Assembly (NCBI GenBank): GCA_937922235.1
Contig: CAKZVC010000009.1
Coordinates: 35,096 to 99,095, forward strand
Direction of reading: 5' to 3'
Source of the DNA: an uncultured Acidimicrobiales bacterium
Lineage (GTDB): Bacteria > Actinomycetota > Acidimicrobiia > Acidimicrobiales > SHLQ01
Length of the DNA stretch: 64,000 bases
Below, one piece after another: positions 13,765 through 55,085 of this stretch. The notes beneath the pieces are model-generated. The model did no database searches, had not been told where the DNA came from, and was given only the letters and a program-made list of their open reading frames with translations. A program made the translations under genes and the position numbers. Within the stretch, counting starts at the first letter, position 1; the number at the start of each line of letters is the position of its first letter.

Positions 13765-14577
13765 ATGACCAACACCTACGCTTCACTCAACGGCAAGGTC
13801 GTCATCGTGACGGGCGCCGGCAAGGGCATCGGCCGAGCAATCGCCGAGCGTTTCGCTGGGCAGGGCTGCCCGGTTGTCATCAACGACATCGACGAGGCGA
13901 TCGTCGCTGAAACCGTCGGCGCCATCAACGCCAGCGGCGGCAACGCCATGGCCGCAATCGCCGACGTCTCCAAGTCCGACCAGGTCCAAGCAATGATCGA
14001 TGCCACCATGGAGGCACACGGCCGCATCGATGTCGTCGTCAACAACGCTGGCATCGTCAGCCCGATGCTTCACTTCTTCGAAGCCGACGAGGACTGGTGG
14101 CGCCGCATCGTCGACGTCAACCTCACCGGACACTTCCTCGTCTCTCACCCAGCTGCCCGCATCATGGCCAAACAAGGTGGTGGCTGCATCATCAACATGA
14201 GCTCCGGCGGCGCAACCCGGGCACACCGTGCCTTCACCGCATACGACGCCACCAAGGGCGGCATCGAAGCACTCACCCGGGCAATGGCCATCGACCTTGC
14301 TGGTTACGGCATCCGGGTCAACGCACTCATGCCCGGCTCGATCGACACCAACAGCCAAGGTGAGGAATACCGCAAGATCAGCGGCGTCAACATCCCAATG
14401 GGAACCGTTGGCGAGCCTGAGGACATGACTGGCGCAGCGCTCTTTCTTGCCTCCGACGATGCGTCGTACATCACTGGCGACGTCATCAAGATCGACGGAG
14501 GCATGCTCGCTCAGCAGCGGTCAGCAACTGTCGACATCCGTCCACCCGCAAACTTCCCGAAAGTCGAGGACCTCTAA
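13765..14577 (+). CDS. Short-chain dehydrogenase/reductase (SDR)
   Basis: 270 aa. TGAGKGIGRAIA cofactor motif, NNAG, and the YDATKGG catalytic Tyr/Lys. Confidence 0.9.
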   Translation: MTNTYASLNGKVVIVTGAGKGIGRAIAERFAGQGCPVVINDIDEAIVAETVGAINASGGNAMAAIADVSKSDQVQAMIDATMEAHGRIDVVVNNAGIVSPMLHFFEADEDWWRRIVDVNLTGHFLVSHPAARIMAKQGGGCIINMSSGGATRAHRAFTAYDATKGGIEALTRAMAIDLAGYGIRVNALMPGSIDTNSQGEEYRKISGVNIPMGTVGEPEDMTGAALFLASDDASYITGDVIKIDGGMLAQQRSATVDIRPPANFPKVEDL

Positions 14578-16667
14578 TGGGAGTCCGTATTGGTGCTGAC
14601 GTCGGTGGCACGTTCACCGATGTCGTAATCGAGCTGGACGATGGCTCGTTCAAGTCGACCAAGGTGCTCACCACGCACGGCGGCCCCGACGAGGGAATCC
14701 TGCTCGGTATCGAACGCATTGCGACCGAGCACGACGTCGACATGGCCGACGTCGAGCAGATCATCCACGGCACGACGCTCGCAACCAACGCGCTTATCGA
14801 GCGTCGCGGTGCCAAGACCGCACTCGTCACGACCGAAGGCTTCCGCGACGTCATCGAGACCCGCACCGAGGGTCGCTTCGAGCAGTACGACCTCAACATC
14901 GTCTTGCCGACGCCTCTCATCGAGCGCAATGATCGCTTCACCGTCCCCGAGCGCCTCAACGCTCGCGGCGAGGTGCTCATCGAATTCGACGAGGCCGCTG
15001 CGTCTGCGGTGATCGACACGATCGCCGAGCGTGAGTACGAGGCGGTCGCTGTTGGCTTCATGCACAGCTACCGCAACTCGATGCACGAGCAACGCTTTCG
15101 CACGATGCTGCTCGAGCGCCTGCCGAACATCTCGGTGTCGATCAGCGCTGAGGTCTCGCCCCAGATGCGCGAGTTCGAACGCTTCAACACCGTGTGCGCC
15201 AACGCCTACGTCCAGCCGCTCATGGCGAGCTACCTGTTCAAGCTCGCCGAACAGCTCAAGGTTCGTGGCGCCGACTGCCCGCTCTACCTCATCCACTCTG
15301 GCGGTGGCCTTGTCAGCGTCGAGACCGCAGCAGCGTTCCCGGTTCGCCTCGTCGAGTCCGGTCCAGCCGGTGGCGCAATCTTTGCCGCCGATCTTGCCGC
15401 CAGGTACGGCCGCGACCGGGTGCTCAGCTACGACATGGGTGGCACCACCGCCAAGATCGCGCTGATCGAGGACTACACGCCACAGACCGCGAAGACCTTC
15501 GAGGTTGCTCGCACGACTCGCTTCAAGAAGGGCAGTGGCATGCCCATCTCGATCCCGGTTATCGAGATGATCGAGATCGGTGCCGGCGGTGGCTCGATCG
15601 CTAGCGTCGACTCGCTTGGCCAGATCCGCATCGGCCCACACAGTGCTGGTTCAGAACCTGGCCCGGCCGCATACGACCGTGGCGGCGTCGACCCCACCGT
15701 CACCGACGCCAACCTTCAGCTCGGACGTCTGCACTCCGACAACTTTGGAGCGAAAGACATCACCTTGTCGCCCGAGAAGACGGCCGTGGCTATCCGCACC
15801 GCAATCGGCGAACCGCTTGGCATGGACGACCAGACCGCAGCCGTCGGCATTGCCGAGGTTGTCGACGAGAACATGACCAACGCGGCCCGAGTGCACGCAG
15901 TCGAGAACGGCAAGGACCTTGCTGGCTTCTCGATGATCGCCTTCGGCGGCGGCGCTCCGCTTCATGCATCTCGCCTGATGGACAAGCTCGGGCTCGACGA
16001 GCTCTTCATCCCAACCGGCGCCGGCGTTGGTTCGGCGATTGGTTTCCTCCGGGCACCGTTCGCCTACGAAGCGGTCCGAAGCCTTTACACCCGAATCGAA
16101 GACTTCGACTTCGACGCGGTGAACCAGGTTCTGGCCGAGCTCACCAACGAAGCTGAGACGTTTGTCCGCCAAGGCACCGATGCTGAGCTCGTGGTCGAAA
16201 GGCAGGTCAGCATGCGGTACAAGGGACAGGGCTGGGAGATTCCGGTCAAGCTGCCCGATGGCGACTTCGATGCGTTCGCGGCTGAAGGCTTGGGCGCCAC
16301 GTTCACCAAAGCCTACGAAGAATTCTTCGGCCGGGCCATCGACGACCTCACCATCGAGACCGTCAGCTGGGCTGTTCGAGTTGCTTCGGTGCTTGAGCTT
16401 CCAGACGCACTCGAGCTCACGAGCGAGCAGAACCGCATCGAAGCCTCCAACACCCGCCCGATCTTCGACCCGGTCACCGGCGATATGGCCGACTCGTTCG
16501 TCATCGAACGCGACGACCTTTCACCGGGCGATGCCGTTGCTGGCCCCGGCGTCATCGTCGAACAACAAACCACGACCGTGCTTAGCTCGCACCATGTCGC
16601 AGTCATGCAAACCGACGGAACCCTCCTCGTCACTAGGGGTTCCGCCTCGTTGGGAGACCTCCTGTGA
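14577..16667 (+). CDS. hyuA: Hydantoinase/oxoprolinase A-family subunit (ATP-dependent)
   Basis: 696 aa. GADVGGTFTDVV N-terminus and DMGGTTAKIALIE. Stop/start overlap with the SDR gene and with hyuB. Confidence 0.9.
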   Translation: MGVRIGADVGGTFTDVVIELDDGSFKSTKVLTTHGGPDEGILLGIERIATEHDVDMADVEQIIHGTTLATNALIERRGAKTALVTTEGFRDVIETRTEGRFEQYDLNIVLPTPLIERNDRFTVPERLNARGEVLIEFDEAAASAVIDTIAEREYEAVAVGFMHSYRNSMHEQRFRTMLLERLPNISVSISAEVSPQMREFERFNTVCANAYVQPLMASYLFKLAEQLKVRGADCPLYLIHSGGGLVSVETAAAFPVRLVESGPAGGAIFAADLAARYGRDRVLSYDMGGTTAKIALIEDYTPQTAKTFEVARTTRFKKGSGMPISIPVIEMIEIGAGGGSIASVDSLGQIRIGPHSAGSEPGPAAYDRGGVDPTVTDANLQLGRLHSDNFGAKDITLSPEKTAVAIRTAIGEPLGMDDQTAAVGIAEVVDENMTNAARVHAVENGKDLAGFSMIAFGGGAPLHASRLMDKLGLDELFIPTGAGVGSAIGFLRAPFAYEAVRSLYTRIEDFDFDAVNQVLAELTNEAETFVRQGTDAELVVERQVSMRYKGQGWEIPVKLPDGDFDAFAAEGLGATFTKAYEEFFGRAIDDLTIETVSWAVRVASVLELPDALELTSEQNRIEASNTRPIFDPVTGDMADSFVIERDDLSPGDAVAGPGVIVEQQTTTVLSSHHVAVMQTDGTLLVTRGSASLGDLL

Positions 16668-18418
16668 GCGCAACAGATGTCCATAACCAAATCATGTGGA
16701 ATCGACTGATCTCGATTCTCGAAGAGCAGGCACTCACGCTTGTGCGTACCGCGTTCAGTACGTCGGTTCGTGAAGCGGGCGACTTGTCCGCTGGCGTGTT
16801 CGACCGCGAAGGACGGATGGTCGCCCAGGCGGTCACCGGGACTCCCGGTCACGTCAACACCATGGCCGCGGCAGTTCCGCACTTCATCAACGACATCGGC
16901 CCCGAGCGCATCTACCCCGGCGACGTGTACCTCACCAACGATCCGTGGAAGGGCACGGGCCATCTTCACGACATCACGGTCGTTACACCTGTATTTCGCT
17001 CCGCACTTCCGGCGGAGATCCGCGGAGACCTACATGGTCACTCCGCTTCGCTACGTTCCCCACAGGAACGTTCTGAAAGCGCTCAAGGGGAGCGGAGCTC
17101 GCGTAGCGACCAAGATGGCGGTGTGGGGTCGTCGACCGGAAGTGTCGACAACTTGATTGGTTTCTTTGCGTGCACGGCGCACGTGGTGGACGTTGGCGGT
17201 CGTGGCTACGGCCCCGACGGTATGGAGATCTACGAAGAGGGCATCCGCATTCCGATCATGAAGTGGGCCGAGCGCTGGGAGCTCAACCACGATCTCGTCA
17301 ACATCTTGCGTAACAACGTGCGTGAGCAAGACCAGGTGCTTGGCGACATTCACGGCCTCGCAGCCTGTAATGAAACCGGTCGCCGTCGCCTCCTCGAGAT
17401 GCTCGACGAGTTCAACATGGACAACCTCGATGATCTCGCCGAGTTCATCTTCGATCGTACTCGCAAAGCCACGATGGCCGCGCTCGCTCCAGTCGAGAAG
17501 GGCGTCTACCGCAACGAGATGACCGTCGACGGATACGAAGAGGCCGTCGACCTTGTCGTCGAGCTCACCGTCACCGACGAAGGTATGCATGCCGACTTCA
17601 CCGGCACGTCACCGCTCAGCCAGTTCGGCATCAACGTGCCGATCGTCTACGCCCAGGCGTACTTCACCTACGGCATGTTGGTGGCGCTCGCCCCCGAGCT
17701 GCCAAACAACTACGCGTCGCTGTTCCCGTTCACCGTGAGCGCCCCCGACGGTGTGATCCTCAACGCACAAGACCCCGACCCCGTGTCGGTCCGTCACGTG
17801 CTTGGCCACTTCGTCACCGACTTGTGCCTCGGCGCAATCGCCCAGGCGCTACCCGACGTCGTTCCGGCCGAGGGTGCTGGTGCGTTGTGGAACTTCCAAG
17901 CCAGCGCTCGCTCAGCCGATCCGTCAGCGTTGCTACCACCGGTCGAGATGCTCATGTTCAACAGCGGCGGCACCGGAGCTCGTCCGAGCCTCGACGGTCT
18001 CACTGCAACCGCGTTCCCATCGGGCGTTATGACGATGAGCGCCGAAGCCACCGAGCAGGTTGGTCCGATCATCATCTGGCGCAAGGAGATCCGCGAGAAC
18101 AGCGGCGGTGCTGGTAAGTACCGCGGCGGTCTGGGTCAGATCATCGAAGTGGGCCCAACCGACGGCTACCAGTTCGAGTTCTCGGCCATGTTCGACCGGG
18201 TCGACAACCCCGCACGTGGCCGTGCTGGTGGCGGCGATGGCGCCGCAGGCAAGGTCTACCTCGACGACGGCACGCCGTTCTCGGCCAAGGGCAAGCAACT
18301 CGTTCCCGCCGATCGCAAGCTCATCCTCGAGCTGCCGGGCGGCGGTGGGTTCGGCGACCCGAGCGAGCGCGACGCCGCCGCAGCCGAAAACGATAAGAAA
18401 CAGGGGTACGTTTCGTGA
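16664..18418 (+). CDS. hyuB: Hydantoinase B/oxoprolinase-family subunit, carrying a 49-codon in-frame insertion
   Basis: 584 aa. LTNDPWKGTGHLHDITVVTPVF ... LIGFFACTAHVVDVGG are typical HyuB blocks, separated here by an atypical Ser/Arg/Gly-rich segment. Confidence 0.9.
   Translation: MSATDVHNQIMWNRLISILEEQALTLVRTAFSTSVREAGDLSAGVFDREGRMVAQAVTGTPGHVNTMAAAVPHFINDIGPERIYPGDVYLTNDPWKGTGHLHDITVVTPVFRSALPAEIRGDLHGHSASLRSPQERSESAQGERSSRSDQDGGVGSSTGSVDNLIGFFACTAHVVDVGGRGYGPDGMEIYEEGIRIPIMKWAERWELNHDLVNILRNNVREQDQVLGDIHGLAACNETGRRRLLEMLDEFNMDNLDDLAEFIFDRTRKATMAALAPVEKGVYRNEMTVDGYEEAVDLVVELTVTDEGMHADFTGTSPLSQFGINVPIVYAQAYFTYGMLVALAPELPNNYASLFPFTVSAPDGVILNAQDPDPVSVRHVLGHFVTDLCLGAIAQALPDVVPAEGAGALWNFQASARSADPSALLPPVEMLMFNSGGTGARPSLDGLTATAFPSGVMTMSAEATEQVGPIIIWRKEIRENSGGAGKYRGGLGQIIEVGPTDGYQFEFSAMFDRVDNPARGRAGGGDGAAGKVYLDDGTPFSAKGKQLVPADRKLILELPGGGGFGDPSERDAAAAENDKKQGYVS
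17000..17146 (+). repeat. 147-bp inverted-repeat element inserted in frame in hyuB (copy A)
   Basis: 9-bp terminal inverted repeat: CACTTCCGG 17004-17012 and CCGGAAGTG 17136-17144. The 27-nt core at 17086-17112 is identical to 33690-33716. Length is a multiple of 3 with no stop. Confidence 0.7.
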
Positions 18419-33075: not shown

Positions 33076-33660
33076 ATGCATCTGACACCTGAACAGATTG
33101 ACCGTCAGCCCTTCCGCATGACGCGGCGTGGGTACGACATTGTCCAGGTTCGGAACTTCCTGCGCGAGATCGCCGACGAGATGCGTGCTCGCCAAGAAGT
33201 GCGTGAGCGTCTTGCCGAGAGCGGCGAAGACACGGCGGTCGCCGAGCACCAGGCGCATCAGATTCTCGAAGAGGCACGCCAGGAAGCTGCGGCCATTCTG
33301 GCCAACGCCGAAACACAGGCTGGTTCTGCTGAAGCGCTCGCTCTTGCTGATGGCCGTGCAGCCGAAGTGATCGCCGAGGCGAACGCGCAGGCCGAGCAGC
33401 TGGCCGAAGAGGCTGAGACTCGAGCTCGCGAACGAAGCGACGCTGTTATCTCTGCCGCGCAGGCCCGACTCGATCAGCTGCTTGAAGCTGAACGCGAAGT
33501 GTCGGAGCGAGTGGAGAAGGCACGCGCCGAGCTCGAGCCGAAGCCAGCCGAGCCGATCCTTTCGGATAGCCGTGACGTGGTCCCGATCGAGATGGTGCCA
33601 GACACGTCTCTTGCCGACTTCATGAAGTCAACGCTGCGCCATGAAGTCCACCCTGATTAA
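33076..33660 (+). CDS. DivIVA domain-containing protein
   Basis: 194 aa. LTPEQIDRQPFRMTRRGYDIVQVRNFLREIADEM followed by a coiled-coil region. Confidence 0.85.
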   Translation: MHLTPEQIDRQPFRMTRRGYDIVQVRNFLREIADEMRARQEVRERLAESGEDTAVAEHQAHQILEEARQEAAAILANAETQAGSAEALALADGRAAEVIAEANAQAEQLAEEAETRARERSDAVISAAQARLDQLLEAEREVSERVEKARAELEPKPAEPILSDSRDVVPIEMVPDTSLADFMKSTLRHEVHPD

Positions 33661-33678: not shown

Positions 33679-33752
33679 GAAACCGCTCGAGGGGAGCGGA
33701 GCTCGCGTAGCGACCATGTCGGCTACCGCGGATCTCGACCGGGAGTGTCGAG
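33679..33752 (+). repeat. Copy B of the inverted-repeat element (partial), directly after the divIVA-like stop
   Basis: 36/38 identity to 17075-17112, including a 27/27 core at 33690-33716. The 3' end TCGACCGGGAGTGTCGA matches 17131-17147 with one mismatch. CCGCGGATCTC is the reverse complement of copy A's left arm. Confidence 0.65.
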
Positions 33753-33760
33753 AAAGAAAC

Positions 33761-33835
33761 TGGGGGTTGCTGCTCCGGCTAGTCAGGCGCGGGCGGTCGT
33801 ATGGTCTGACCAGCCGAAGCAGCGAACAAACCCCA
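33761..33835. other. 75-nt extended imperfect hairpin (about 22 bp in 4 helical segments)
   Basis: GGGG/CCCC, TTGCTGCT/AGCAGCGA, CGGCT/AGCCG and GTCAG/CTGAC pair around the loop GCGGGCGGTCGTAT. No U-tract follows. Confidence 0.4.
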
Positions 33836-34119: not shown

Positions 34120-35952
34120 ATGCACAACAGCCGTGAAACCCGGATTGCCGAGTTGGAAGAACTTCTCGTCGAGACCGAACGTCAACTCATCTCCCTGCAC
34201 CGGGACGAACTGGATGCGGAGATGCCCCCACCTCCTCCTCCACCTCCGCCGCCTCCCTCTCAAGCACCGCCGCCCCCGCCCCCTCCGACATCACCGCCGC
34301 CACCCGCCGGATCATCGGCTGGGCCGAACTCGTCTGGCATCAACTTGCCGGGCGCCGAGTTCCTTCTCCGCTACGGCGGCATCAGCCTCGTGGTTGCCTC
34401 GGCGGTCTTCTTTGTTTCGACCGCCATCAGCCGTGGCTGGGTTGGCCCACTTGCTCAGCTCGTGCTCGCCACGCTGGCATCGTTCGCCCTCATTGGTCAG
34501 TCGTTCCGATTCGATGACGACCAGCGGCGTTGGACGATCACCTTGGCCATCGGCGGAACCGCCGCACTCTTCGCCAGCGGCGTTGTTGGCTTCGTCGGTC
34601 TGGAGATCTTGACCTTCGCCACCGCCATCAGCTGGCTCCTCGCATCGGTCGGGTTGTTCCTGGCGCTCTCGCGAATCCACGACGCACAGTCGATAGCGAT
34701 CGCTAGCGTCCCGGCGGCACTCATCGGTGCCTACCTACTGTTCGAAGGCGAATGGTATGAGCCGACACTGCTCGGCATCGTCGGGCTTGTGTACACGCTT
34801 GCCGTGGTCGCTACGACGCACGGTCGTTCGTGGTTCATCGCTCGAGCACTCGGAGCATCGGCCGGGTGTTTCCTCGCCGGTAGCGCCGTGCTCGACACAA
34901 TCGATAACACTGCCGTGGCCGCTAGCGTCGAAGCGCTGCTGCTCGGAGCGATGGCAATCGTCGCCGCACTCGTGGCGGCAGCCTCACAGGTCATCGAGTT
35001 CAAGGGCCAAGAAGCGCTCGACACGCCACGCTTCAGTGCACTTGTCGAAGCTCGCCTTGCCGCACTTACGATCCCGTTCATGACGGTGATCATCGCTGGC
35101 ATCTCGAACGAGCTCAGTCTCGTCCCCATGAACGGGTTCTGGGTCGCAACCATCGTCGCAACGGCCCTTGGTCTTGCGGTTGGCTCGATGACCAAACTTC
35201 CCGAGACGATGCGCTTACTTCACTTTGCCGCCGCGTTGTCGACCGTCGCCGTTTCCCTCATCGGTATTGCTGAGGGCCCCGTGCTCCTGGTCGCACTGCT
35301 CGGTCAAGCGGTCGTCGCTGGTTGGTTGGCGCATCGCTTCGACTCGCCTGACCTCACCCTGCTCGCTGCAACGCTTGCCGCTGGCGTCATCTTGTTGACC
35401 GGCACCTACTTGGTCCTGGGTGTCTTCGTCGAAGGCCTGACGATCGGCGAGTCCATTGCGGTGTTGCTCGTGGTCATCGCCAGTGGCGTCGGCGTGAAGG
35501 TCCTCCGAGACCGGAACCTCATCGACGAGGCGTGGTATGTCACGTGGGCATTGACGCTGGCGTGGAGCACGGCAACGTTCCGAGACCTGCCCCAGGGCCA
35601 GATGTTCATCACCCTGATCTGGGCGATGGTTGGTGCGGCCATGATCGTGCTCGCAAGCCGGATCATCGACCGTCAGATTCTGACCGTCGGACTGTTCACG
35701 CTCACGCTGACGGCAGGCAAGCTCATCTTCGTCGACCTGGTCGCCGTCGACGTGCTGTGGCGAGCAGCGCTCTTCTTCATCGTCGGCATGTTGTTCATGC
35801 GCCTGGCATTCGTGTTGCCGAAGATGATGGACACCGGCGACGACACGCAAGACGCGCCGCCACCTGCTCCTCCAACTCCACCCGCCCCACCAACGCCTTC
35901 TCCGAAGGGCCCGGGCCGCGTGCGGGTTGACTCAGGTGCTGGGGTCGGCTGA
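34120..35952 (+). CDS. DUF2339 family polytopic membrane protein
   Basis: 610 aa. N-terminal coiled coil ([16 protein letters not shown]), a poly-Pro tract, more than 15 TM helices and a Pro-rich C-terminus. GAGG SD before the ATG. Confidence 0.7.
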
Positions 35953-51476: not shown

Positions 51477-54400
51477 TCACGATGCTGCTGCGAGTAGCTG
51501 TTCGAGCGTTGCCCCGTTCTGGAGCAGTCGAGCAAAGTCGGCAGGGATGACGAACTCGCGTCTGCCAGAAGCATCGAGCTCAAGGGCATCTGCAATCTGC
51601 TCGTTGAGGCTCTTCTCAAGCTCTGGAGAGATTCCAGCGGCCTCTTGTTGAGCCTTGCGCTCAGCCCAATCCTCGATGAGCTCACCAATGAATGTTGAGG
51701 TGACGACGTCGGCCGCCGTCACACCAATCGGGACGCCGAGGTTTATGAGATTGCCGTTCACCGAGTCGGGCACGCTGTCGCCCTCAAAGCCAGCCACGAT
51801 GCCTTCGGTAATCAACGAGCTCAAGCTGACAAGAAACGACAGCACCTGGGCGATTGGATTGACTCCGCTGGTTTTGAAGTTGAGGTGCGGGTCGTGAAGG
51901 TTCAGTGCAACGTGTGCTCTCGGTTCAACCGTCACTACGAGCTCACCTTGTGCGTTCGTAGAGAAGGTCGGATCGAGTTCGAACGCAACGAAGACGTCGG
52001 CGCGACCGCTAGCACGTGCCCGCGCCCAGTAGCTGTCGCTGGCGTATCGCTGGCAGCCAAAGAATCGGGTGCCGAAGGTCGTCTTGAACCGAGCGTTGTA
52101 TGCGGCTTCGAACGGCACTTGGACGCTCAACCCGATCGGCTCGGTGATCGACGGTGCGCTGAGGTCAAAGCTCGCGTCCTGGGTGATGCGAACCTGTCCG
52201 TTCTGGTCGGTGACCTTCGTGGGGTTGCTGCAAGAAGACGAGTTGACCTTGATATCCGTCGAGTCTTGGTACGTGAACAGCAGGCCGTTCTTATCTAGAG
52301 AGATGCGACCTCCATCGAGTTCAGCGTCGAGCCGTTGCATGATGAGCTCGCACAGTTTCGCTTCACTGCCGGTGACGTCCTTGCAGTCGACGTCTTCGGG
52401 AGTGAAGTCTGGAACGGCGACACAGGTGAGGCCGTTCTCGTAACCCCATCCGTCAGCATCAGGGTCGACAGCGGTGCTCGAGCACTCGGGCGCCGTACCC
52501 AGGTTGGTCGGGCTTCCGGTTGGCGATCCGCCGAGACGCATGCTGTCTGGCCCACGGCCGTTGTTGTAACACTTGTGCAGACGGTTGCCGCTGGTGAAGG
52601 CAAGACCGACACACTTGCCGATCGCACGTTGACCAAGAGCGTTCGGGTGGACGCTTTCAGAGCCGACACCGGTGCTCGTGGTGCGGATACCTGTGGCCCA
52701 CTCGAGGTTTGCATGGTTCGAGCTGTTGTCACGGCTCGTCACCTTTGGTGAACACAGCTCCTTACCGTCGAACGCGTTCGACAGTGAAAGGAAGTCCACG
52801 CCACGTCGGTCAGCGATCTGGCGCATGGTCGAGTCGATGAGCGGCACGAACGTGTTGTTCACGTAGCGCATGTCCGAGTTGCCGAACGGGCAACCATGGT
52901 TGAAACGTTGTGCCTGGTCGTAGCTCGCGCTTGCCGGAACTGGTGACGGGTACGACATAAGGACGATTCGAGCATCGGATTGTCCTGCGTTGTTGAGTAC
53001 TCGCTTGATGTCTTCGACGGTTTCAGAGACTCGTGGCCGCAAGGTGTTCGTGACCTGAGCCTCGAAGTAGGAACTTGTGGCTTCGCACCTATTGCCAGTG
53101 GTGTAGGCCACTGCGCAGGCCGCGACGAACCTGTCGAAACCAATGTCGTTGCCACCGACGGAAACAACGACCATCTCGACGTCATTCGCCTCGACGATGT
53201 CACGCAGCTGGTGAATCTGAAGTCGTTCACCAAAGCGGCCAGTCGTGTTTGCTGGCTGGGACAGTCGGCCAATGTCGCGGGTCGTTGCCCCTGAGCATGC
53301 AATGTTGAGTGCGGTGACACCGGGGATGTTTGCGCTGTGGATCGGCGCTACATCGCTACGGCGGCAGGTATTTGCTGTCCCCGCCTCGTAGGCGCCTGCA
53401 CGCTTCTCTGCTGAGTTGTTGCCGATCAAATGGCCCGACTCACCAGAGATGTATGAATCACCCATCGACACCACGACGTTGCGTCGCGGCGCTTCGTTGA
53501 CGACTTCGTTGGCCGCTTCGTCGGCCTCGTCGGCGGCTTCGGCCAGGTCCACGAGCTCATCCTCGACGTCGCTTGGAAACACCTGCGTTGGCTTCTCGGG
53601 AACGGGAACCGTCGGGCGTGCGGGGGACTCGACCTTGTCGACCGGTCCGGTGCATTGCCACCCGCCTGTCACCCAGTCACATCGGAAGGCCGTGGTGCTC
53701 TCGAACGGTCGACCACAGTCGTTGATGTAGTTGTTCTTCGCTTCCTCGGCCGTTGGGTACAGGCCTCCCTTGCCGTTCTCGCAAGCGATCTGGATTGGCG
53801 TTTTCGTCGGGGCGATCTTCGACGTCACTACCGCCTTCTTCTCCTGGCTCGGAGCTTCGGTCGGCGTTGGCTCCGTCTTGGCGACGTTCGAGTCGGTGGT
53901 GGTCGCCGTGACTCGGTTGGATGCTGCTGATTCGACGTTGCGGCTGTCGACGGCCTTGACCATGTAGCTGTACTGGCCAGGGTTGGTGATGTCGTCGTAC
54001 GGCATCTCGTCGGTGCCGATGGTCTCGATTCGGTTTCCGTTTCGGTACACGTTGTACGCAACAGCTCCCTCGACCTGGTCCCAGGTGAGGATGGCCGTGC
54101 GGCCGTTGGTCTCGACCGTGTGAATCTTCGGAGCATCGATGCGAAGATCCTCCGGTTCCGGTTGCGGTTCCGGCTTGTCCTCAACAGCTGGAGCTTCGAC
54201 AGCTGCTGCGAGCTCAGGCGTTTCGGCCGGAGCTTCTTCAACAACCGCTACCTCGGGCGTGCCGTCCGCGACTGGTGCTTCCTGCACCGGTGCGTCTTCG
54301 ATCGACGCTTCGCCGCCGTCGATGTTCCAGTTCGTGTTACGAGTGGTGTCGGCGTCTACTCGGTTCGAGGCGTCTGATTCGACGTTGCGAGAGTCAACAG

Positions 54401-55085
54401 CTTTGATCATGTAGCTGTACTTGCCAGCAGCATTGATGTCGTCATACGGCATCTCATCGGTGCCGATGGTCTCGATGCGGTTTCCGTTTCGGTACACGTT
54501 GTACGCAACGGCGCCGTCGACTGGGTCCCACGTGAGGATCGCTTTCCGGTTTTCGGTGACAACAGTGAGGATCTGCGGAGCGTCGATCTTCTCGACGGCA
54601 ACAGGCTCAACCTCTGGTTCAGGCTCTGGCTCTGGCTCTGGCTGAGGTTCAGGTTCAGGTTCTGGCTCGGGCTCTGGCTCTGGTTCCGGCTCTGGCTCAG
54701 GTTCATTGGATGGGCGAACCCACGACGTCTTCTTGGTCGTGTCAGCTTCGACCTTTTCCGATCGTTGCGACTCGTCGTTCTCGGCACCGAGCGCAGAGAC
54801 CTCGTAGGTGTAGATGCCAGCCGCGTTGATGTCGTCGTACGGCATCTCGTCGGTGCCGATCGTTTCAAGCAACTTTGAGTTGCGGTAGATGTTGTATCCG
54901 ACCGCACCGTCAACCGGCGCCCACGTGAGGATCGCAAGCCGGTTGCGCGTCTCAACGGAATCGATCACCGGTGCATCGGGAGTTTTGGCAGCCCCCACCT
55001 GTGTGAGCGGGATACCCGCAGCTAAGACAAGCACTGCCAACAGTGCCCAAAGGTGCTTTCTCATGTCTGTCTCCTTGAGTTTCAC
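51477..55085 (-). CDS. Secreted multidomain protein: signal peptide, 3 FN3 modules, (PE)n linker, Cys-rich module, SGNH/GDSL hydrolase, and a 302-aa uncharacterised C-terminal domain
   Basis: 1202 aa. MRKHLWALLAVLVLAAGIPLTQVGA signal. Three LTW.PV.GAV.YN.YRN modules. GDS motif VVVSMGDSYISGESG and His block SESVHPNALGQ. Confidence 0.85.
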   Translation of the reverse strand: MKLKETDMRKHLWALLAVLVLAAGIPLTQVGAAKTPDAPVIDSVETRNRLAILTWAPVDGAVGYNIYRNSKLLETIGTDEMPYDDINAAGIYTYEVSALGAENDESQRSEKVEADTTKKTSWVRPSNEPEPEPEPEPEPEPEPEPEPQPEPEPEPEPEVEPVAVEKIDAPQILTVVTENRKAILTWDPVDGAVAYNVYRNGNRIETIGTDEMPYDDINAAGKYSYMIKAVDSRNVESDASNRVDADTTRNTNWNIDGGEASIEDAPVQEAPVADGTPEVAVVEEAPAETPELAAAVEAPAVEDKPEPQPEPEDLRIDAPKIHTVETNGRTAILTWDQVEGAVAYNVYRNGNRIETIGTDEMPYDDITNPGQYSYMVKAVDSRNVESAASNRVTATTTDSNVAKTEPTPTEAPSQEKKAVVTSKIAPTKTPIQIACENGKGGLYPTAEEAKNNYINDCGRPFESTTAFRCDWVTGGWQCTGPVDKVESPARPTVPVPEKPTQVFPSDVEDELVDLAEAADEADEAANEVVNEAPRRNVVVSMGDSYISGESGHLIGNNSAEKRAGAYEAGTANTCRRSDVAPIHSANIPGVTALNIACSGATTRDIGRLSQPANTTGRFGERLQIHQLRDIVEANDVEMVVVSVGGNDIGFDRFVAACAVAYTTGNRCEATSSYFEAQVTNTLRPRVSETVEDIKRVLNNAGQSDARIVLMSYPSPVPASASYDQAQRFNHGCPFGNSDMRYVNNTFVPLIDSTMRQIADRRGVDFLSLSNAFDGKELCSPKVTSRDNSSNHANLEWATGIRTTSTGVGSESVHPNALGQRAIGKCVGLAFTSGNRLHKCYNNGRGPDSMRLGGSPTGSPTNLGTAPECSSTAVDPDADGWGYENGLTCVAVPDFTPEDVDCKDVTGSEAKLCELIMQRLDAELDGGRISLDKNGLLFTYQDSTDIKVNSSSCSNPTKVTDQNGQVRITQDASFDLSAPSITEPIGLSVQVPFEAAYNARFKTTFGTRFFGCQRYASDSYWARARASGRADVFVAFELDPTFSTNAQGELVVTVEPRAHVALNLHDPHLNFKTSGVNPIAQVLSFLVSLSSLITEGIVAGFEGDSVPDSVNGNLINLGVPIGVTAADVVTSTFIGELIEDWAERKAQQEAAGISPELEKSLNEQIADALELDASGRREFVIPADFARLLQNGATLEQLLAAAS
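53907..54974 (-). repeat. Three tandem FN3-encoding repeats within the 1202-aa gene
   Basis: Modules 2 and 3 are near-identical at the protein level (AILTWD.V.GAVAYNVYRNGNRIETIGTDEMPYDDI....Y.YM.KAVDSRNVES.ASNRV). Module 1 is more diverged. Confidence 0.8.
54618..54704 (-). repeat. (Pro-Glu)n-coding hexanucleotide microsatellite
   Basis: The plus strand reads (CTCTGG/TTCAGG)n, encoding EPEPEPEPEPEPEPEPEPQPEPEPEPEPE. Confidence 0.9.

Follow-up and report, generated by a model that had tools for sequence, protein, structure and literature searches.

How does an enzyme of a conserved family come to carry about 49 codons that its distant relatives lack? The question is raised by a 64,000-nucleotide (nt) stretch of DNA, hereafter called the window, from an uncultured Acidimicrobiales bacterium (contig CAKZVC010000009.1 of assembly GCA_937922235.1). 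In this window the gene hyuB (16664..18418, + strand), which codes for a 584-amino acid (aa) protein of the hydantoinase B / N-methylhydantoinase B family, carries extra DNA between two otherwise adjoining protein blocks. A first-pass annotation, made from the letters of the window, had proposed that this DNA is a small non-autonomous palindromic element. The analysis described below bears out the idea of a small palindromic interspersed repeat, because a search beyond the window uncovered many further copies of the same family. We consider it quite probable that the 49-50 extra codons of HyuB are a tail-to-tail pair of ~75-nt units belonging to a hairpin-forming interspersed repeat of marine Acidimicrobiales.

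Anatomy of the insert in hyuB

The HyuB protein matches the Pfam Hydantoinase_B profile over its full length (PF02538, E = 1e-134), and the match falls into two stretches that are interrupted only at the insert. The additional ~49 codons, RSALPAEIRGDLHGHSASLRSPQERSESAQGERSSRSDQDGGVGSSTGSVDN, lie between the TPVF and LIGFF blocks of the open reading frame (ORF) at 16664-18418, with the conserved sequence GTGHLHDITVVTPVF before them and LIGFFACTAH after them, as the first-pass annotation had read the gene. Its perfect 9-bp inverted repeat is likewise present, since CACTTCCGG (17004-17012) and CCGGAAGTG (17136-17144) are 100% complementary. The 27 nt at 17086-17112 are indeed identical to those at 33690-33716, and 0 of 100 shuffles gave such a match.

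The similarity between these two places extends further than had been claimed. There is an 80% forward match between 17075-17151 and 33679-33754, and a 72% match links 16988-17061 to the reverse complement of 33691-33763. Because the similarity to the 33.7-kb locus runs in both directions, the insert is, as judged from its sequence, two opposed copies of one unit of ~75 nt that are joined tail-to-tail, with the first at 17000-17074 (+) and the second at 17075-17149 (-).

The left unit (17000..17074, + strand) matches both the reverse complement of the 33.7-kb copy and the family consensus given below. It begins with a hairpin, here called H1 (16999..17017, + strand; stem C-TCCGC / GCGGA-G, loop ACTTCCG), which is followed by a ATCCGCGG tail, a middle part, and an inner hairpin of the form ACGTTCC-CCACA-GGAACGT. 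The right unit (17075..17149, - strand) contains the 27-mer at 17086-17112 that is common to 33690-33716. Its own H1 (17131..17149, - strand) reads G-TCGAC CGGAAGT GTCGA-C, and its ATCCGCGG tail is degenerate. The 9-bp inverted repeat, which had been taken to bound the element, is actually composed of the H1 loop and closing pairs of these two opposed units. A single intergenic copy of the unit (33679..33763, - strand; H1 at 33734-52, loop ACTCCCG) begins ~20 nt past the stop codon of an ORF with a DivIVA domain (33076-33660). When the full doublet was used to search the 64-kb window with nhmmer, two copies only were found. The 149-nt insert stretch folds with a computed energy of -72 kcal/mol (z = -3.9), and its G+C content and skew are unremarkable.

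The doublet is best delimited as about 17000-17149, and it may extend 5' as far as 16989. This candidate extension, CTGTATTTCGC (16989..16999, + strand), resembles the weakly conserved consensus CTGTwwyTTC and also encodes the (P)VFR residues of HyuB. It is proposed on the basis that information content among family copies climbs from about -10, and that one related locus (L066; loci retrieved from other genomes carry L numbers here) has TTATTTCGC ahead of TCCGC. The Val-Phe codons at the site are GTA TTT in alleles that carry an insert ("filled") versus GTC TTC/TTT in those that do not ("empty"), and the GTA TTT of the filled alleles agrees with the unit's own 5' extension.

The structural context of the insertion point was mapped on solved relatives of HyuB, as had been suggested, and corresponds to a turn of 2-3 residues. 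HMMER alignments to a solved N-methylhydantoinase (7hk5_A) and to a hydantoinase (6yra_B) split exactly at query residues 112/163, where the solved chains hold just these 2-3 residues. The Pfam profile match splits between positions 110 and 111, such that HyuB residues 163-566 correspond to PF02538 profile positions 111-519. An AlphaFold2 model (mean predicted local distance difference test [pLDDT] score of 65.6) has strands at 103-111 and 164-173 that flank the insert, and residues 115-159 have pLDDT values <50 and no secondary structure. Together, the split alignments and the model indicate that the tip of a beta-hairpin has been exchanged for a loop that is predicted to be disordered. HyuB seems to tolerate the insert as a floppy surface loop.

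An apparently undescribed repeat family

A core pattern, TCNNNACTTCCGNNNGANATCCGCGG, was derived from orthologous inserts and searched in a collection in which each species is represented by one genome. Exact matches to the core occur in at least 108 stretches from about 15 or more assemblies, and among the matches listed nearly all are in metagenome-assembled genomes (MAGs) of Acidimicrobiales or Acidimicrobiia. The loci that were fetched hold 129 exact and 167 relaxed copies of the unit. In 117 non-redundant copies, information content is above zero from ~-10 to +62 relative to the start of the hairpin. The consensus of this conserved unit is (CTGTwwyTTC)TCGNNACTTCCGNNCGA(G/C)ATCCGCGGAAaCCgACATGGTCGCTaCGCGAGCTCCGCTCCCC, which is often followed by a third small hairpin. 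Units are 62-75 nt long and form two or three stem-loops, with H1 being a hairpin of 19 nt. In a second subfamily, the distal half of the unit is replaced by GGGCCTCCGGCGCAGCCTCCGGCCCC.

The repeat is also carried by MAGs that are labeled Chthoniobacterales or Verrucomicrobiales, as represented by loci from CAXMRH01 (L011, L020, L031, L032, L050, L055, L057, and L061) and JBLIMK01 (L064, L068, L082, and L083). Spread across phyla was rejected for L020, the one contig tested, which bears the Chthoniobacterales label. The PolA protein encoded there shares 85% identity with its counterpart in an Acidimicrobiia genome, and so this contig has been either mislabeled or mis-binned. A search of viral contigs for the repeat gave 0 matches.

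When Rfam was run on the whole window at the gathering score, on the 33.7-kb copy at an E-value threshold, and on seven of the loci, no family covered the unit. A comparison of unit identity within and between genomes was uninformative. [quoted passage not shown] The family is real and apparently undescribed, and resembles REP elements and MITEs in type.

The most distinctive feature of the unit is the covariation of H1. Its 6-bp stem is paired in 98.1% of cells, and five of the six pairs exhibit changes on both sides. The covariation score of 0.562 compares with 0.171 for shuffled alignments and at most 0.084 for slid controls. The most common stem is CTCGAC / GTCGAG (45 copies), followed by GTCGGG / CCCGAC (24), CTCGGC / GCCGAG (13), and CTCCGC / GCGGAG (9), with other paired forms making up the remaining copies. 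The search pattern fixed the loop ACTTCCG and the tail ATCCGCGG, but left the variable stem positions and the outermost pair unconstrained. Because the pattern required them, the constancy of loop and tail is not independent evidence.

On its 5' side, H1 is preceded by a C or a G that pairs with position +17, and no conserved GTAG or CGTC tag stands there. CGTC occurs next to H1 only in part of the GTCGGG subtype. GTAG (as CTAC) is found inside the units of subfamily A and is absent from subfamily B.

Alleles and evolution of the hyuB site

In 50 orthologues (76-95% identical when the loop is set aside), the length of the site is 2-4 aa, 7-8 aa (VGEADDAT-like), or from 10 to >75 aa. All insert variants are in frame, free of stop codons, and a multiple of three in length. 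As had been anticipated, the insert is specific to this lineage: no homologous loop was found in distant HyuB proteins. The L001 insert is reduced to two H1 modules, those of L002 and L007 have duplications in the left arm, and others are partially deleted. When a neighbor-joining tree was built from the protein without this segment, filled and empty forms were intermingled among its tips. Upstream of the site, L116 (filled) shares 95.7% identity with L112 (empty), against 87.9% downstream.

The insert evolves in a manner distinct from its host gene. When the window is compared with L003, the ratio of nonsynonymous to synonymous substitution rates (dN/dS) is 0.71 in the insert (dS 0.24) and 0.04 in the rest of hyuB (dS 0.67). 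Across nine pairs, amino acid identity is 0.56-0.81 in the insert versus 0.92-0.98 elsewhere, and nucleotide identity is higher in the insert (0.72-0.83) than at the third positions of the gene (0.54-0.75). A double compensatory change separates the right H1 stem of the window (TCGAC/GTCGA) from that of L003 (TCGGG/CCCGA) and turns the peptide SSTGSV into MSGGSP. From these three lines of evidence we infer that the insert peptide is nearly unconstrained, and that its hairpins are probably kept either by selection at the nucleic-acid level or by conversion from other copies.

One of the empty alleles, of 8 aa, deserves comment. Its sequence, GTCGGCGAAGCCGAC (L112:3304-3327, L114:3334-3357, and L069), forms a 6-bp hairpin with an H1 stem of the TCGGC type and a GAA loop. 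This hairpin may be what is left of a unit, may mark a preferred target, or may be coincidental.

Where the copies lie and how they are arranged

Spacers that carry copies were classified with a crude gene caller, by which 35 copies are in convergent, 44 in unidirectional, and 11 in divergent spacers. Copies frequently lie directly past stop codons, and some are positioned between tRNA genes. There are 179 H1 hairpins in total, of which 88 are singletons. Neighboring hairpins form 43 tandem and 10 tail-to-tail pairs, and 0 pairs are head-to-head.

Larger assemblies also exist. Two intergenic composites of ~215 nt (L026:2373-2587 and L033:93-308) consist of a GTGCGTATACA...TGTATACGCAC palindrome between a unit and an inverted unit. 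This palindrome and GGGGTCAGACCCC motifs accompany units in many loci, which suggests that the units take part in mosaic repeat clusters. In addition, the module of H1 plus ATCCGCGG forms short tandem arrays by itself, with a period of ~40-60 nt and lacking the distal half of the unit (L018:1057-1291, L087:1613-2014, L090:6770-6923, and L091:288-493).

Among the ~170 sampled copies, those that overlap coding sequence are restricted to the hyuAB operon, and the others are intergenic. The internal site of hyuB is the first of three such places. A second is found in relatives at the 3' end of hyuB (L001:11668-11745, L002:11806-11840, and L012), where the translated unit gives SSPLPGDIRGG once or twice. 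The third, again in relatives, is a reverse unit at the 3' end of hyuA (L112 and L116:2921-2962), by which the HyuA protein of L116 ends in ...SGVGTSTGSVEKDKGDLL*. At both of these gene ends the unit supplies the final 10-30 codons. Other long ORFs that run over units (L026, L033, L108, L110, L030, L072, L081, L086, and L020) were rejected as gene insertions and represent read-through of leaders or spacers.

An exhaustive phmmer search with the loop peptide against 1.84 billion representative proteins revealed no other host protein, and a word-index protein search with the same peptide returned no candidates. The single phmmer match, P0121, was judged spurious, being a translated CRISPR-like array. 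P0121 is made of FQSTLPAEARGD / CFNPLSPPKRGET / VSIHSPRRSEGR repeats and has the look of a three-frame translation of a CRISPR array. Because coding copies are confined to hyuAB and the peptide has no other protein host, the family is REP-like in its habit and does not behave like Rickettsia palindromic elements (RPEs), to which the insert had at first been likened.

Interpretation and alternatives

If the insert is a pair of units from this repeat family, then it would be a tolerated passenger of HyuB with no role in catalysis. The family would be spreading, or would once have spread, as a non-autonomous element. A trans-acting protein might recognize H1 in single-stranded nucleic acid, for which the closest analogy is provided by REP elements and HUH tyrosine transposases. 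Once inside a gene, the hairpins could be preserved through constraint at the nucleic-acid level or through gene conversion from other copies.

Several observations weigh against this explanation. The inverted doublet is atypical of the family, and 7 of the 10 tail-to-tail pairs are themselves hyuB orthologues. No convincing target-site duplication was found at the hyuB junctions or at the L026 and L033 composites. Family members normally consist of one unit and have no terminal inverted repeats, and the inverted repeat of the insert does not mark transposon ends, as the initial proposal had implied. Furthermore, L115 (empty) and L007 (with an insert of 231 nt) are 98.8% identical across 1.4 kb downstream of the site, although 7 of the 18 nt directly upstream are different. 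On account of this contrast and of the L116 and L112 pair, the exchange of whole alleles by recombination looks like a better fit to the sequences than clean insertion or excision. There is no transposase of any kind beside or between units in ~0.9 Mb of sampled loci. A pattern search of the same loci for ORFs resembling REP-associated tyrosine transposases (RAYTs), using the Y..NP motif, found none, and ORFs between inverted units that were considered as transposase candidates proved to be a thiolase and a membrane protein. Finally, the intact frame and the strong purifying selection elsewhere in the gene are the sole grounds for thinking that HyuB is made with its loop and is active.

A more ambitious proposal is that H1 is the recognition hairpin of an uncharacterized Acidimicrobiia protein that acts on single-stranded DNA or RNA, that selection on the nucleic acid keeps the hyuAB copies paired, and that the whole may constitute the first REP/RAYT-type system in Actinomycetota, or a different mobilization system, that is still active. 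Ongoing activity is hinted at by the occurrence of filled and empty hyuB alleles in backgrounds that are 98.8% identical. We regard this extension as speculative and would not expect it to be correct in full.

The strongest competing explanation places the function of the family mainly at the RNA level. The hairpin could stabilize or terminate transcripts, or be the place where an RNA-binding protein or an RNase acts, and the copies inside hyuB, at the end of hyuA, and at the end of hyuB would then regulate the processing or translation of hyuAB mRNA. Copies past stop codons and between tRNA genes are very probably transcribed, stems that covary around a constant loop are as expected for protein-bound RNA hairpins, a single operon holds three separate copy sites, and the insert is more conserved in nucleotide sequence than the third positions of its host gene. 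However, units in unidirectional spacers have no strand bias relative to the neighboring genes (17 share their strand and 27 lie on the other one), and the hyuB insert has its two arms opposed to each other. G-U pairs, moreover, occupy only 6 of 588 cells in the H1 stems. The lack of an Rfam match and the complete absence of the hyuB copy from many close relatives also argue against an RNA-level role. Since no strand bias is seen and G-U pairs are rare, we lean towards a DNA-level role and judge the RNA-level explanation to be unlikely.

Far less probable is the notion that the loop is a functional extension evolved by the host, such as a flexible linker or an interaction arm, whose likeness to intergenic DNA is secondary. 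In its favor, the insert is in frame in >25 distinct orthologues, and the motifs S(A/G)LP(A/P)(E/D)IRGD and VG(S/T)STGS recur among them. These recurring motifs, however, are translated H1 hairpins that are present also in >100 non-coding copies. The elevated dN/dS of the insert, its presence or absence between sister orthologues, its predicted disorder, and the compensatory stem changes that rewrite the peptide (SSTGSV to MSGGSP) all conflict with a protein-level function, and this explanation is largely refuted. The idea that the extra sequence is eliminated prior to or in the course of expression, as an intron, an intein, or a translational bypass, or else is an assembly artifact, deserves the least credence of all, because apart from the strong 150-nt hairpin (-72 kcal/mol) nothing speaks for it, whereas intein motifs are absent, Rfam gives no match to a group I or II intron, every variant is stop-free with a length that is a multiple of three, and the same insert with the same flanks is present in independent assemblies from ENA, NCBI, and JGI.

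Operon and neighboring features

The insert resides in an operon composed of genes for an SDR protein, hyuA, hyuB, and a DAO-type oxidoreductase. The upstream gene hyuA (14577..16667, + strand), which codes for the A subunit of a hydantoinase/oxoprolinase with Pfam domains Hydant_A_N and Hydantoinase_A, is without the repeat in the window. The junctions of hyuA with hyuB and of hyuB with the DAO gene have 4-nt overlaps and likewise carry no repeat. A scan of the whole window for tRNA and tmRNA genes found none.

Two other ORFs of the window have unusual repetitive character. The first (51477-55085, - strand) codes for a secreted-looking protein of 1202 aa with three repeats of ~80 aa, which correspond to 245-nt DNA repeats at 53896-54980. 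Long (EP)n linkers join these repeats, and a large C-terminal region follows them. The second (34120-35952, + strand) codes for a membrane protein with a run of >25 prolines in its N-terminal region.

Significance and comparison with known systems

At the hyuB locus, nature provides a clean case in which repeat DNA, selfish or structural, has been absorbed, at a permissive beta-turn, into an enzyme fold that appears to be essential. The locus also supplies a graded series of alleles for comparison, with additions of none, 8 aa, 23 aa, 52 aa, and 79 aa. More broadly, an abundant and apparently undescribed structured repeat is present in uncultured marine Acidimicrobiales. Because ORFs read through the repeat, it will confuse gene calling. 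It can also break or mis-join assemblies, and may be of use as a strain-typing marker. The very strong covariation of the stem makes a good starting point in the search for a partner protein. The finding is most useful for its covarying hairpin and its series of alleles.

REP elements and their doublets, called REPINs, are mobilized by RAYT proteins. The REP unit is an imperfect palindrome of 20-40 bp, one end of which carries, beyond the stem, the conserved tetranucleotide GTAG or CGTC. REPINs are predominantly inverted doublets, and the gene for the RAYT, an HUH Y1 transposase, is flanked by repeats in the same genome. The hyuB family shares many habits with REP elements and with the bacterial interspersed mosaic elements (BIMEs) that they form. 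Both are short, high in copy number, hairpin-forming, and mostly extragenic. Both are enriched in convergent and unidirectional spacers near stop codons, occur as singletons, dimers, and arrays that mix with other repeat modules, and occasionally are found as in-frame dimers or clusters within genes. In contrast, the hyuB-family unit spans 62-75 nt with two or three stem-loops rather than 20-40 nt, and lacks a conserved GTAG or CGTC tag beside H1. Its stem covaries strongly among the copies of one genome, with the loop and tail remaining constant in the sampled copies. Inverted dimers, so typical of REPINs, are rare, and the ~0.9 Mb of sampled hyuB-family loci contain no RAYT gene.

RPEs, which have been documented in Rickettsia (PMC10969869, PMC3184786), resemble the hyuB insert in that each is a palindrome of ~150 bp lying in frame at a permissive surface position of a metabolic enzyme, where it adds a peptide of no evident function. 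However, RPE copies reside in many unrelated ORFs, with about half of the copies being coding in some families (PMC10969869), whereas one operon among ~170 copies is affected here. The two have no sequence similarity, and the normal form of the hyuB family is a single 75-nt unit rather than a 150-bp palindrome. The hyuB doublet and the ~215-nt composites of L026 and L033, with their GTGCGTATACA palindrome, are like MITEs in size and in their long terminal inverted repeats. Most copies of the family differ from MITEs in being single and without inverted termini, and neither a target-site duplication nor a related autonomous insertion sequence was seen.

REP dimers or clusters that sit in frame inside genes and encode 20-82 aa have been documented in several phyla (Di Nocera et al. 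2013, PMC3733652). That survey lists GTAG repeats for Proteobacteria, Cyanobacteria, Chloroflexi, and the PVC group, and Actinomycetota are not on its list (PMC3733652). Because such in-frame REP dimers and the Rickettsia RPEs are on record, the kind of element is already known, even if this family, for which the first-pass annotation knew of no counterpart in this type of high-GC genome, is apparently undescribed. The hyuB family is not a demonstrable member of any named family, and it works like a REP-type element.

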